Shown piece after piece: positions 5,548 to 27,009 of a DNA stretch of 34,836 bases (position 1 is the stretch's first letter; each line of letters opens with the position of its first letter). Under the pieces are notes generated by a model. It was not told the DNA's origin. It worked only from the letters and a program-made list of their open reading frames with translations, and ran no database searches. Both the position numbers and the translations under genes were made by a program. Source of the DNA: an uncultured Planctomycetales bacterium (GTDB taxonomy: Bacteria > Omnitrophota > Gorgyraeia > Zapsychrales > Fredricksoniimonadaceae); contig CAYNTZ010000002.1 in NCBI GenBank assembly GCA_964400365.1, positions 1 to 34,836 on the forward strand, read 5' to 3'.

Positions 5548-7603
5548 GCATAAGCGCATGACAGTGCTTTATCAAGCGGGGCTCCTATTGGCGGTGGCTG
5601 CTACCTACTATTTACTAGCGAAGATTAGTTTTATTTTTGATTTTAACCACAGTGGTTTCTCACCGATATGGCTTCCTTTAGGTTTTGGATTAGCGGTTGT
5701 TTTTATGCGCGGGGCATTTTTAAGTATCGGGATTGGGCTGGGGGCCATGCTGGCGCATGCCACGGTTTTTTCTCAAGGTGATTTACATGAACAAATGTGG
5801 TGGTCATTAGCTGCAAGCTTGGGCTTTGTCAATGCCTTGCAGGCGGTGGTTGGGGCAGTTATTTTGACACGATTTCTTAAGAACCCCTACCCCTTATTTA
5901 AGGTCTCGGATGTTTTTGTATTTGTTCTAGCGGCTGGTGTGTCAGCTTCTATCGGGGCGGTGATGGGGACTTCTTTGTCCTGCGCGTATCAAGCAGCCCC
6001 AGTCGAATTTTTTAATTCAATCGTATTTAATTGGTGGTGGGCAGAATTTTCCGGCATTTTGACGGTAGCTCCCTTAGTGTGGATTATGTGCAAGACCACC
6101 TTTAGGATTGGATCTCAGCGGAAGATGATTGAAGGGGCTGGCTGGTTGATTGCCTTGCTTGGCATTGCCTGGCTGATTTTTGGCGGGCAGATAGCTATTA
6201 GCCGTATGAATTTATCCAGCACCTTTCTTTTATTCCCTATTGTCGTATGGTTTACCTACCGATTAGGCCATTGGGCGGCGATGGCCTCAGTGGCGATCGT
6301 GGCGGTTGCGTCAGTGTGGGGTACGGCTAATGGCTATGGGCCTTTTGTCAGCGACGATCCGGATGTGAGCATGTTGTTGTTACGTTTCTTTAACGCGGTG
6401 GTGGCGCTAACGGCCTTGACCTTGGCTGCAGCCTTATATGAACGCCAGCATGCCCAGCAGGAGTTGGAGCGTTCCCACCAGCGTTTTAAGGCGCTTATTG
6501 AAAACAGTTTGGATGCGGTGAAATTATTAAGTGCTGAGGGTTTAATCCTTTATGCGAGTAATTCAGTTGAGCGCCTTATTGGTTATGGCGCTCATGAAAA
6601 TATCGGCCGCAGTATTTTTGAGCTGGTTTATCCGGATGATCGCTTGGCTATGCAGCGGGAATTTGGGCAGGTGTTAAGCCGTCCGGGGGAAATTGTCCGT
6701 GCGCAATGCCGGATGTTATTAAAGGATGGGTCGGTGCGTTGGTTTGAAGGGTCAGGACAGAATTTATTAAATGACCCTGTCATGAAAGCCATTGTCGTTA
6801 ATTTTCGCGATATCACGGAACGCAAGATGGTGGAAGATTTGTTAAAAATGGATAAGGATGCCTTGCAGCATTTACTTGAAGAGCGCAATGAGACCTTGGC
6901 GCAGACCCAAGATGCGTTACGGCAGGCCAACCGGCTGGCGGATATCGGTACCTTAGCCGCGACGGTGGCGCATGAGTTGCGCAATCCATTGGGGGTGATC
7001 CAGATTGCCGCGCATAATTTAAGGCGCAAGAATAAGCAATTGGTTGAGGATCATCACCTGCATCATATTGAGAAGAAAGTCTGGGAAGGAAACCAGATTA
7101 TTGACAATTTGTTGAGTTATTCGCGCATTAAGATGCCTGCTTTTGAGCTTGTTAATGCGGCAGCTATTTTGGATGAATGTGTGCTTAATGCACAGAACCG
7201 GTTTGCGGACCAGGTGATTAATGTCGTGCGTGCCTATGACGCAGCGGATTTGCCGCAGATAGAAGCAGACCAAAACCAGCTAAGGGAGATTTTTACCAAT
7301 GTCTTAAATAATGCCTTCCAAGCGGTGGCAGGCCTATTGGTGGGGCAGGTCGAAGTCACGGCGCAACGATCCAATGGGGCTTGCCAATTTATTATTAGGG
7401 ATAACGGCTGCGGCATTGACCCAGCGGATATCTCTAAGGTGTTTAACCCGTTTTTTACGCGTAAGGCCAAGGGTACGGGGCTGGGGTTATCCATTTGCAG
7501 TGAAATTATTGATTTGCATCATGGGCATATTGACATATCAAGCCAACACGCCAGCGGCACCGCGGTTATCATCACCCTGCCAATCACACAATCACACAGT
7601 TAA
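5540..7603 (+). CDS. Sensor histidine kinase (MASE1-like membrane domain, PAS, HisKA, HATPase)
   Basis: About 8 N-terminal TM helices are followed by a PAS domain. Kinase boxes are present: H-box ATVAHELRNPLG, N-box NVLNNAFQA, G1 IRDNGCGI, G2 GTGLGLSI. It overlaps the regulator gene by 8 nt. Confidence 0.85.
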   Translation: MAEHKRMTVLYQAGLLLAVAATYYLLAKISFIFDFNHSGFSPIWLPLGFGLAVVFMRGAFLSIGIGLGAMLAHATVFSQGDLHEQMWWSLAASLGFVNALQAVVGAVILTRFLKNPYPLFKVSDVFVFVLAAGVSASIGAVMGTSLSCAYQAAPVEFFNSIVFNWWWAEFSGILTVAPLVWIMCKTTFRIGSQRKMIEGAGWLIALLGIAWLIFGGQIAISRMNLSSTFLLFPIVVWFTYRLGHWAAMASVAIVAVASVWGTANGYGPFVSDDPDVSMLLLRFFNAVVALTALTLAAALYERQHAQQELERSHQRFKALIENSLDAVKLLSAEGLILYASNSVERLIGYGAHENIGRSIFELVYPDDRLAMQREFGQVLSRPGEIVRAQCRMLLKDGSVRWFEGSGQNLLNDPVMKAIVVNFRDITERKMVEDLLKMDKDALQHLLEERNETLAQTQDALRQANRLADIGTLAATVAHELRNPLGVIQIAAHNLRRKNKQLVEDHHLHHIEKKVWEGNQIIDNLLSYSRIKMPAFELVNAAAILDECVLNAQNRFADQVINVVRAYDAADLPQIEADQNQLREIFTNVLNNAFQAVAGLLVGQVEVTAQRSNGACQFIIRDNGCGIDPADISKVFNPFFTRKAKGTGLGLSICSEIIDLHHGHIDISSQHASGTAVIITLPITQSHS

Positions 7604-26588: not shown

Positions 26589-26610
26589 AGCTTTACAGTG
26601 CAAATAAATT

Positions 26611-26640
26611 TTGTTAGGATTGAACGCCTTTAATAAAGAA
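26611..26640 (+). repeat. Degenerate partial copy of the tRNA-Arg D-arm/anticodon-stem/intron-start junction
   Basis: TTAGGATTGAACGCCTTTAATAAAGAA aligns by eye to TTGGATAGAGCAACAGCCTTCAATAAGGAG (26971-27000), with about 22 of 27 positions matching. Confidence 0.4.
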
Positions 26641-26643
26641 AAT

Positions 26644-26718
26644 GTCCCTGTAGCTCAGTTGCCTGTCTACCGACAGGTAGAGATACCTGCCTGCCGGCAG
26701 GCAGGGAGCAACAGCCTT
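26644..26718 (+). pseudogene. Disrupted duplicate of the tRNA-Arg 5' exon carrying a 44-nt palindromic insertion in the D-loop
   Basis: AATGTCCCTGTAGCTCAGTTG (26641-61) is identical to 26953-73. GAGCAACAGCCTT (26706-18) is identical to 26978-90. Between them, 44 nt (26662-26705) replace GATA. No matching 3' half follows. Confidence 0.65.
26662..26705. repeat. Two GC-rich palindromic hairpins (REP/MITE-like insert)
   Basis: The first is CCTGTC-TACC-GACAGG (26662-77). The second is the perfect 20-nt palindrome CCTGCCTGCCGGCAGGCAGG (26686-705). Confidence 0.6.
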
Positions 26719-27009
26719 ATGTATACAGTGTATGCGTTAAAGTCAGACAAAGATCAGCGAATATATGTGGGCATGTCACAGGATGTTTTAAAAAGGTTAA
26801 AAGAGCATAATAGGGGGCAAACCACATCAACGAAGCCATATAGACCTTGGAGAATTCTCCATGTTGAATATTTTAATACAAGACTTGAAGCTAGATTAAT
26901 TGAAAAGAAATGGAAGTCAGGGAGTGGTAAAGAATATCTAAAGAATTTGAATAATGTCCCTGTAGCTCAGTTGGATAGAGCAACAGCCTTCAATAAGGAG
27001 CCTTTATAG
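26719..27009 (+). CDS. Small GIY-YIG nuclease-domain protein (UPF0213/COG2827-like)
   Basis: MYTVYALKSDKDQRIYVGMSQDVLKRLKEHNRGQ..RPWRILHVEYFNTRLEARLIEKKWKSGSGKEYL matches the GIY..YVG..R..H..E GIY-YIG core. The ATG follows the duplicated exon end CCTT directly. The reading frame runs through the real tRNA-Arg 5' exon and stops 19 nt into the intron. Confidence 0.75.
   Translation: MYTVYALKSDKDQRIYVGMSQDVLKRLKEHNRGQTTSTKPYRPWRILHVEYFNTRLEARLIEKKWKSGSGKEYLKNLNNVPVAQLDRATAFNKEPL

Follow-up and report, generated by a model that had tools for sequence, protein, structure and literature searches.

The 34,836-nt stretch of DNA analysed here (contig CAYNTZ010000002.1 of GenBank assembly GCA_964400365.1, positions 1 to 34,836; hereafter the window) comes from an uncultured bacterium assigned to the Omnitrophota, and includes a tRNA-Arg(UCU) gene that is split by a group I intron and preceded by a small open reading frame (ORF) for a GIY-YIG nuclease. 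The functional 5′ exon of the tRNA gene (26956–26990, + strand) ends at U34, and the 3′ exon (27190–27229, +) is identical to positions 5643–5687 of L138, a related locus described below. The intron (26991–27189, +) is 199 nt long, contains no ORF, lies in the anticodon loop between U34 and C35, and ends in G. No tRNA was called by ARAGORN at these exons in the unmodified sequence, but a 75-nt tRNA-Arg(TCT) was called when 26991–27189 was deleted in silico. This agrees with the preliminary description of the window, in which 26956–26990 was taken to be the functional exon.

A displaced copy of the 5′ exon lies further upstream at 26644–26718 (+), and consists of tRNA positions 1–18 (26644–26661), 19–22 (GATA, 26682–26685) and 23–35 (26706–26718), interrupted by two 20-nt inserts designated PAL2 and PAL. 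The 21-nt and 13-nt blocks previously reported to be shared with the real exon are exact direct repeats (26641–26661 and 26953–26973, and 26706–26718 and 26978–26990, respectively). When 26662–26681 and 26686–26705 were removed, the upstream copy was identical at 38 of 38 positions to AAT followed by the real 5′ exon. PAL (26686–26705, unstranded) is a perfect 20-bp palindrome, CCTGCCTGCCGGCAGGCAGG, inserted between the D-loop GATA and the D-stem GAGC; it occurs once in the window, as compared with 0.01 copies expected, and forms an 8-bp hairpin. PAL2 (26662–26681, unstranded) is a hairpin-forming insert, CCTGTCTACCGACAGGTAGA, with a 6-bp hairpin (z = −3.2), and differs from PAL by five transitions that, by inspection, compensate each other in two alternative 6-bp registers. 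The D-loop region is split by inserts, as stated earlier, but the supposed single 44-nt palindrome is composed of PAL2, the retained native GATA at 26682–26685, and PAL. In L001, a 94%-identical relative, PAL2 is missing as a clean 20-nt indel.

The sequence immediately upstream (26589–26643, +) is the native 5′ flank of tRNA-Arg, with one mismatch to the flank of the intact tRNA-Arg gene in L138. It includes a promoter-like match, TTTACA-17-TAGGAT (26592–26620; a consensus match only), and probably holds the tRNA-Arg promoter. A further degenerate tRNA copy had been placed at 26611–26640, but only an 18-nt gapped local match was found there, with a score that was reached by ~0.3–0.5% of shuffled or genomic controls. 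As the same sequence flanks the tRNA-Arg of L138, which lacks both intron and cassette, this segment belongs to the native flank. Three nested copies left by repeated invasion are hence not supported for the window, though tandem arrays exist in other genomes.

The GIY-YIG ORF (26719–27009, +) encodes 96 amino acids (aa), of which the nuclease domain accounts for 79 codons (26719–26955), and the tail (26956–27009) is a read-through into the tRNA exon and the intron. Codon 80 falls exactly on tRNA position +1, and the final 54 nt, i.e. 17 sense codons and the stop, consist of the 35-nt exon and 19 nt of the intron, as had been read from the last 18 codons before. The ORF lacks its own stop codon, and its reading frame ends within the tRNA/intron. 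Its start coincides with the point at which the intron starts in the real gene (CCTT/ATG versus CCTT/CAAT), also as noted earlier, and the CCTT/ATG junction is given for the P0029 contig as well. The stretch from PAL to the ORF gave no promoter-like match. Where PAL ends and the D-stem GAG follows (26703–26708), the sequence reads AGGGAG and resembles a Shine-Dalgarno motif; it stands 10 nt ahead of the ATG and would be partly sequestered within a PAL RNA hairpin.

The product of the ORF matches PF01541 with E = 1.9e-14 (54.1 bits, cut-off 22.6). In an alignment of 29 sequences that includes the window protein, Y5, Y16, R26, H30 and E62 are invariant, and these are the catalytic residues of the GIY-YIG superfamily. 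When a profile of the family was compared with the PDB, the best matches were the NMR structures of UPF0213 proteins (1YWL, 1.8e-10; 1ZG2, 2.1e-9), followed by Slx1 (8e-7) and I-TevI (1.7e-3). The AlphaFold2 (AF2) model has a pLDDT of 95.7 and UPF0213 and Slx1 as its top folds; in Foldseek searches with this model, the TM score was 0.66–0.70 for Slx1 as compared with 0.43–0.54 for I-TevI, and UPF0213/Slx1 were also ahead of UvrC. As modelled, the protein is a minimal single-domain nuclease of the Slx1/UPF0213 lineage with the nuclease fold and the catalytic residues intact.

Comparison with related genomes identified an allele without the cassette, L138, which has the same synteny as the window, namely PtsP, a 505-aa membrane protein (81% identical to that of the window), tRNA-Arg and tRNA-His. 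There, tRNA-Arg is an intact 75-nt gene, and PAL, the GIY-YIG ORF, the intron and a PD-(D/E)XK nuclease gene located downstream of the tRNA in the window are all missing. L140 is a second empty allele in this synteny. L001, which comes from an independent assembly (GCA_013565675.1), has the same filled arrangement as the window. The site is therefore polymorphic for the presence of the element (filled in the window and L001, empty in L138 and L140), as is seen for free-standing homing endonuclease genes. Given that all three are absent from L138, the GIY-YIG cassette, the group I intron and the PD-(D/E)XK block represent three independent insertions in the window. The cassette covers ~330 bp and includes PAL, a few tRNA-derived bases, the 79-codon GIY-YIG gene and a fresh copy of the 5′ part of the tRNA, so that one partial copy and one complete copy of the target tRNA flank the element. 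Read against the empty allele, the cassette's own 5′-exon copy joins the resident 3′ part via the group I intron, restoring an intact tRNA, and the old 5′ exon remains upstream in the form of a dead copy that PAL interrupts.

Between the window and L001, DNA identity is 74–79% for the flanking host genes, 92–98% for the pseudo-exon, the ORF and the tRNA/intron, and 89% for the PD-(D/E)XK gene. Synonymous divergence (dS) is 1.22 for the neighbouring host gene, which encodes a 504-aa protein with named homologues that are all from Candidatus Omnitrophica, 0.58 for the PD-(D/E)XK gene, and 0.25 for the GIY-YIG ORF, the last value resting on 46 synonymous sites. The value for PtsP had been computed out of frame and was disregarded. 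The dS of the cassette is ~five-fold below that of the neighbouring host gene. Both nuclease genes are more recent in shared ancestry than the surrounding chromosome, as expected of laterally spreading elements. The ratio of non-synonymous to synonymous divergence (dN/dS) is 0.17 for the GIY-YIG ORF and 0.06 for the PD-(D/E)XK gene, values that indicate purifying selection on both.

To place the arrangement in a wider context, 80 genome loci with relatives of the GIY-YIG protein were fetched using a profile built from an alignment of 8 sequences. The loci span at least five named phyla, with members of Bacteroidota, Patescibacteria, Omnitrophota, Ignavibacteriota, Gammaproteobacteria, Bdellovibrionales and Brevinematales, and some are from cultured isolates. 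All 80 ORFs abut a tRNA, or a tRNA-derived copy, on the same strand. A same-strand tRNA beside the ORF was called by ARAGORN at 74 loci, and at the remaining 6 the tRNA copy bears an intron, is truncated by the contig or bears PAL; none of the 80 loci had an adjacent tRNA on the opposite strand. The adjacent tRNAs are Arg-CCT, Asn-GTT, several Leu, Arg-ACG/TCG/CCG/TCT and Lys. At nearly all loci, a partial copy of the adjacent tRNA lies across the ORF from it, with CCTGCCTGCCGGCAGGCAGG as a clean insertion. The search for flanking tRNA-fragment duplications at homologous genes, as proposed in the preliminary description, was thus strongly positive. A random disruption is not supported for the palindromic insert, which is a conserved, cleanly inserted 20-bp element and part of the design. 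Since the arrangement recurs in the independent assembly of L001 and in 80 loci from unrelated projects, cultured isolates among them, it is not an assembly artefact. Together with the empty allele L138 and the low dS of the cassette, the survey supports the conclusion that the original observation was real, and that a nuclease cassette with a replacement tRNA 5′ half, by which an intact tRNA is regenerated, is a widespread design.

In the common order, type A, a tRNA 5′ fragment with PAL inside is followed by a few more tRNA bases, the ATG, the ORF and the intact tRNA. Most PAL copies end 15–44 nt before the ATG, and 17 of 41 ORFs stop 10 nt into the tRNA at the TAG of positions 8–10 (GTAG). 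A mirror-image order, type B, has the intact tRNA (with a terminator) first, followed by the ORF and by a PAL-bearing 3′ copy of that tRNA (L043, L089, L091, L116 and L058). Tandem arrays of 2–4 units are also found, in L093 (4 units with a period of 316 nt), L057, L060, L061, L083 and L116. The nesting is visible in the predicted proteins, some of which end in ..(A/V)PVAQLDRATAF, the translated 5′ half of a tRNA, while others begin with ..PVAQLDTCLPAGREQ.., the translated tRNA 5′ part and PAL; PAL is translated in frame in a spurious N-terminal extension of 23 of the 149 top representative proteins. A library-wide search returned 355 clusters at 50% identity with E ≤ 1e-10, and 5,484 with E ≤ 1e-3. 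In 79 of 90 cases the nearest-neighbour ORF sits at a tRNA of the same isotype, where 46% would be expected by chance; cross-phylum Leu and Asn pairs are among these cases, and the tendency is confounded by host phylogeny. This suggests target-specific cassette lineages that move horizontally. The tRNA piece between PAL and the ORF was more divergent from the local tRNA than the distal piece at 32 loci and less so at 4, a comparison confounded by homology that ends within the 12 nt compared. At three loci (L046 at 2831, L049 at 2794 and L058 at ~2815), an intact tRNA is preceded by a PAL-bearing 5′ fragment without an intervening ORF, and the ORF is found on the opposite flank of the tRNA; such loci resemble decayed or rearranged cassettes.

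Of ~70 PAL copies associated with cassettes across phyla, 49 are exact. The insertion is clean in virtually all cases, with the left flank stopping at tRNA position n and the right flank beginning at n+1. PAL usually sits where the D-loop meets the 3′ strand of the D-stem (consensus ..GG(A)TA/GA..), and further sites are 26/27, 32/33, 23/24, 9/10, 55/56 and 15/16. PAL2 occurs at the identical D-loop spot in the Bacteroidales loci L100 and L079, in reversed form in L037, and at tRNA position 7/8 in L039 and L044. The inserts are also found nested, PAL within PAL in L094 and PAL2 within PAL in L039. Three roles that might be proposed for PAL were considered. An anti-deletion spacer was rejected, as mirror-image loci retain ~95 nt of uninterrupted repeat; an operator or ribosome-binding-site element is unlikely, as PAL follows the ORF in those loci; and a sequencing adaptor or assembly artefact was rejected, as PAL was found in many isolates and technologies.

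Exact PAL sequences were also found in 35 viral contigs of IMG/VR (L002–L036), with a GIY-YIG gene nearby in L033 only. Some of these contigs have 3–6 copies of PAL, and viral PALs often lie between imperfect direct repeats of 7–14 nt (examples at L010 8396, L004 1660 and L020 3391), unlike the clean insertions in tRNA copies. A phage tRNA-Met(CAT) in L026 (2239–2330) has PAL in its variable loop and is still called by ARAGORN, at a length of 92 nt and with PAL taken as a long extra arm; as judged by this call, it may be functional. A related copy in L003 (~8616) was not called. A separate protein scan of viral contigs gave 8 loci, of which 2 were inspected; one, L141, has a type-A cassette with a PAL2-like hairpin.

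The intron in the tRNA-Arg gene matches RF00028 over the full length of the model when a 291-nt input is used (22.6 bits, E = 7e-4), which is below the gathering score of 50. It was not detected by Rfam on the whole window at the gathering threshold, nor on 1.1 kb at E ≤ 10. At least 20 tRNA-Arg(UCU) introns make up the family of which the intron is a member, and in all 20 the exon ends in ..CCTT, the intron ends in ..G, and CTAAGC.. follows. An alignment of 10 members revealed compensatory changes in 21 of 80 consensus pairs. About half of the family have an extra insertion of 80–115 nt near the 5′ end, a P1/P2 extension (L118, L124, L126, L127, L130, L136 and L063), and these extended introns are 261–317 nt long as compared with 191–211 nt for the compact ones. 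In L123 (~1170–1320), a 12-nt copy of the tRNA-Arg 5′ end (GCGCCTGTAGCT) lies ~150 nt upstream of an intron-containing tRNA with no GIY-YIG ORF between them, and may be a remnant of another insertion. Intervening sequences are apparently also present in tRNA-Asn(GTT) genes of Brevinematales, Microgenomates and viral contigs, after ..GGCTGT or ..CCCTGT, in genes that were missed by ARAGORN (L039 ~735–960, L054 ~295–560, L033 ~815–900 and L142 ~1795); a group-I-like GTAGAGACT core is present in L039 and L054.

Downstream of the 3′ exon, a 455-nt insertion block (27237–27698, +) is bounded by a 7-nt direct repeat, TTTTTTA (27230–27236 and 27692–27698). In L138 the block is absent, and tRNA-Arg continues straight into ...TTTTTAGTTGT... 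and then tRNA-His. The block includes a free-standing gene for a 136-aa I-Ssp6803I-like PD-(D/E)XK endonuclease with a TTG start (27254–27664, +), which matches PF11645 at 3.1e-29 (102 bits, cut-off 26.1) and PDB entry 2OST, which we take to be I-Ssp6803I, at 7.7e-5 over residues 2–103. This gene adjoins the same intron in L001 and L129. An ORF-less intron paired with a free-standing endonuclease gene is known as collaborative homing, and the combination of an ORF-less intron with an external endonuclease gene 3′ of the tRNA resembles it. The two components occur without the GIY-YIG gene in L129, and L063 has the GIY-YIG cassette and the intron but no PD-(D/E)XK gene. The intron and the downstream gene are separate elements acquired independently of the cassette.

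A causal tie between the start of the ORF and the insertion site of the intron, as first proposed, is not borne out. Homology between the displaced copy and the tRNA ends near positions 30–35 or 47–52 in intron-less tRNAs too, and ~18 of the 20 loci of the intron family have no GIY-YIG cassette. In the viral contig L033, the displaced copy has a contiguous, intron-less anticodon loop, and the functional tRNA-Asn downstream has an intron. The two positions are probably unrelated, and the most likely reason why they coincide in the window is that junctions generally tend to lie within the anticodon loop or close by.

Beyond tRNA-His, the segment 27829–31306 encodes a Fic/DOC protein, a 351-aa protein without a Pfam match, a BrnT-family toxin and a 118-aa protein. 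No Pfam match was obtained for the ORFs at 29178–30230 and 30948–31301. In L001, a gene for an MFS transporter is found in place of this content. The segment is possibly a variable islet at tRNA-His; no integrase was present among its ORFs scanned. The ORFs scanned over 19.5–32.6 kb of the window yielded no recombinase, and the cassette itself has the 96-aa GIY-YIG ORF as its single ORF.

Taken together, these data make it probable that the Omnitrophota tRNA-Arg(UCU) gene was colonised by a homing-type selfish GIY-YIG cassette that regenerates its tRNA target. The predicted nuclease would break or nick the tRNA gene, probably at the place where PAL sits, usually the point at which the D-loop gives way to the 3′ strand of the D-stem, and recombinational repair from a cassette-bearing copy would then transfer the PAL-ORF-tRNA segment. 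The insertion would be tolerated by the host since the tRNA is regenerated. The regenerated target, being intact, could be cut again or recombine unequally to give tandem arrays, as shown experimentally for SegB of phage. The ORF would be expressed by read-through from the tRNA promoter, with the tRNA released by RNase P.

Several observations weigh against this reading. PAL interrupts the displaced copy, but the regenerated tRNA keeps the putative target sequence intact, which is a difficulty for self-immunity. The tRNA-derived arms match the local tRNA, such that colonising a new tRNA species needs a step beyond homing. The 79-aa protein has no DNA-binding domain, unlike characterised homing GIY-YIG enzymes. 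PAL lies upstream of the ORF in one form of the cassette and downstream in the other, and 34 viral contigs have PAL without a GIY-YIG gene. Moreover, the synteny group holds only two filled and two or three empty alleles, and the number of synonymous sites in the ORF is small.

The alternative that deserves most attention, though it is considered unlikely, is that PAL and PAL2 are themselves the mobile elements. They would then be the smallest known mobile DNA, ‘nano-elements’ in the form of 20-bp hairpins that are moved by cut-and-paste, with no duplication of the target, into folded tRNA-gene DNA by the minimal Slx1-type GIY-YIG nuclease as their structure-specific ‘transposase’. The gene for the nuclease would travel along and survive by duplicating the disrupted tRNA segment, so that the ORF and the tRNA duplication would be by-products of PAL insertion at structured tRNA-gene DNA and not the result of homing. 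Such a view fits the near invariance of PAL across phyla, as compared with only ~55% protein identity for the ORF, and the lack of target duplication at its insertions. It also fits the presence or absence of PAL2 between loci that are 94% identical, its occurrence at the same D-loop spot in another phylum and tRNA (L100), the nested inserts of L094 and L039, and the solo PALs in viral contigs, one of them within a tRNA variable loop. Many insertion sites fall at helix boundaries of the cloverleaf, a preference confounded by the shared ancestry of the loci, and the best structural relatives of the protein are the Slx1 nucleases of branched DNA. This kinship makes a structure-specific reaction on a hairpin, a cruciform or extruded tRNA-gene DNA a reasonable lead. 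However, there is no known mechanism for pasting a 20-nt hairpin without an enzyme that forms a covalent intermediate or a ligase, the gene is absent from 34 of the 35 viral contigs with PAL, and PAL insertion alone leaves the constant flanking of the ORF by a regenerating tRNA duplicate unaccounted for. If this alternative were true, it would define a new structure-guided class of transposition or homing, and a selfish function for the enigmatic bacterial UPF0213/COG2827 proteins.

Other explanations have less in their favour than the homing-type cassette. The GIY-YIG gene could be an ordinary neighbour of the tRNA, with a break, nuclease-induced or spontaneous, leading to a SegB-like tandem duplication of ORF and tRNA and the decay of one tRNA copy, and with neither insertion nor homing between genomes. 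The tandem arrays, the two orientations of intact and disrupted copies, the match of the tRNA-derived arms to the local tRNA and the SegB precedent would all follow. Local duplication is nevertheless improbable, given the empty syntenic allele without any ORF beside the tRNA, a cassette dS five-fold below that of the host gene, the recurrence of identical compact junctions and of PAL at different tRNAs across phyla, and close relatives of the ORF across phyla at the same tRNA isotype. Even less probable is an arrangement of benefit to the host, in which a tRNA-like leader with a hairpin controls the expression or processing of a housekeeping repair nuclease co-transcribed with the tRNA. The ORF is under purifying selection, a Shine-Dalgarno-like AGGGAG precedes its ATG by 10 nt, and the Slx1-like lineage is regarded as a vertically inherited repair function (PMC1564403). 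Yet the element is present or absent among close relatives, varies in copy number up to arrays, is found at different tRNAs in different taxa, has PAL after the ORF in the mirror-image form, and has left PAL-bearing remnants without the ORF (L046 and L049). The version in the preliminary description, in which three nested tRNA copies record three successive invasions and the cassette targets the insertion site of the intron, is now equally hard to uphold. It drew on the exact coincidence of ORF start and intron start, and on the weak 18-nt similarity of 26623–26640 to the exon/intron junction. It is already contradicted by L138, where the first ‘copy’ stands upstream of a tRNA with neither intron nor cassette, and further by the similar end-points of homology in intron-less tRNAs and by the absence of the cassette from most of the intron family.

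The homing-type cassette has precedents in part. SegB is a GIY-YIG homing endonuclease enriched beside tRNA genes; it cuts within tRNA genes, and tRNA+segB units are thereby amplified in tandem in a recombination-dependent manner (PMC13096335). With SegB and other free-standing GIY-YIG homing endonucleases of T4-like phages (PMC13096335; PMC2988022), the cassette shares the location of the gene beside same-strand tRNA genes and a selfish inheritance without an intron. However, SegB is of the HEase/UvrC+ lineage, with ~200 aa at its C-terminus for DNA binding, whereas the cassette protein is a bare 79-aa domain of the Slx1/UPF0213 type. Unlike SegB, the cassettes are chromosomal, occur across phyla, are fused to the tRNA to the nucleotide, and leave a partial tRNA copy with an invariant 20-bp palindrome. 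Integrase islands regenerate tRNA genes by partial duplication (PMC9897764, citing Williams 2002), and islands and prophages in tRNA genes, with their attL and attR, likewise bring a tRNA-regenerating segment and leave a signature of one partial and one complete tRNA. The cassette differs in having no integrase or att recombination, in its size (~0.3 kb as compared with 10–100 kb), in regenerating either the 5′ or the 3′ part, and in its PAL-bearing displaced copy and tandem arrays. The original remark that a cassette of this kind is not a described mobility strategy must therefore be narrowed, as integrase islands (PMC9897764) and SegB (PMC13096335) are precedents. What stands is that no description of a minimal Slx1-like GIY-YIG/tRNA/palindrome cassette was found in open-access papers and bioRxiv, and an earlier description is possible.

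The protein itself is closest in sequence and fold to Slx1 and to prokaryotic UPF0213 proteins (COG2827, YhbQ-like; PDB 1ZG2, 1YWL and 7CQ3), with which it shares a minimal GIY-YIG core without the C-terminal Asn. Dunin-Horkawicz et al. described the Slx1-like lineage as vertically inherited repair enzymes, and selfish GIY-YIG enzymes as arising from the other (UvrC+) lineage (PMC1564403). The cassette clade, unlike the lineage so described, behaves as a mobile, tRNA-nested element. In the case of tRNA group I introns with I-Ssp6803I, the window has in common with them a group I intron in a tRNA anticodon loop and a PF11645 endonuclease, but its endonuclease gene sits not within the intron but just 3′ of the tRNA, and is independent of the GIY-YIG cassette (L129 and L063).

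Mobile ORFs and homing endonuclease genes of mitochondria, for example at Allomyces atp6, bring a replacement terminus for the gene that they enter and leave the old terminus as a pseudogene. They are alike in that a nuclease gene sits in an essential gene and the displaced segment is duplicated so that function is kept. They differ in having protein-coding hosts, in-frame fusions, LAGLIDADG or classical GIY-YIG enzymes, and no palindrome. Short hairpin elements inserted with no or minimal target duplication, sometimes with a dedicated nuclease nearby, are known from REP/RAYT, the hairpin-dependent transposition of IS200/IS605, and the GC clusters of yeast mitochondria. In contrast to these, PAL is only 20 bp long, is nearly invariant across phyla, targets copies of tRNA genes, and is linked to a GIY-YIG enzyme and not to an HUH/Y1 enzyme.

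The cassette belongs with known kinds of element, namely free-standing homing endonuclease genes and tRNA-regenerating integrative elements, and the palindrome may point to something categorically new. We know of no mechanism for the precise, scar-less insertion of a 20-bp palindrome, and if the present interpretation is correct, a near-invariant palindrome inserted in this way would represent a potential new DNA-insertion chemistry. Cultured hosts exist in Zunongwangia (4 units in Z. atlantica and 1 in Z. pacifica), Pedobacter, Sphingobacterium, Algoriphagus and Mangrovibacterium, which makes these proposals directly testable. The cassette would also be a compact natural example of an element repairing the essential gene that it breaks, and would account for many partial tRNA ‘genes’ and for odd N- and C-terminal extensions (LPAGRQ, PVAQL...) in genome annotations. 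A large clade of ‘uncharacterised’ UPF0213/COG2827 proteins, comprising the 355 clusters recovered at the stricter threshold and thousands at looser ones, would then be selfish tRNA-nested elements and not repair enzymes, and the view that selfish GIY-YIG enzymes come solely from the UvrC/I-TevI lineage would be overturned.

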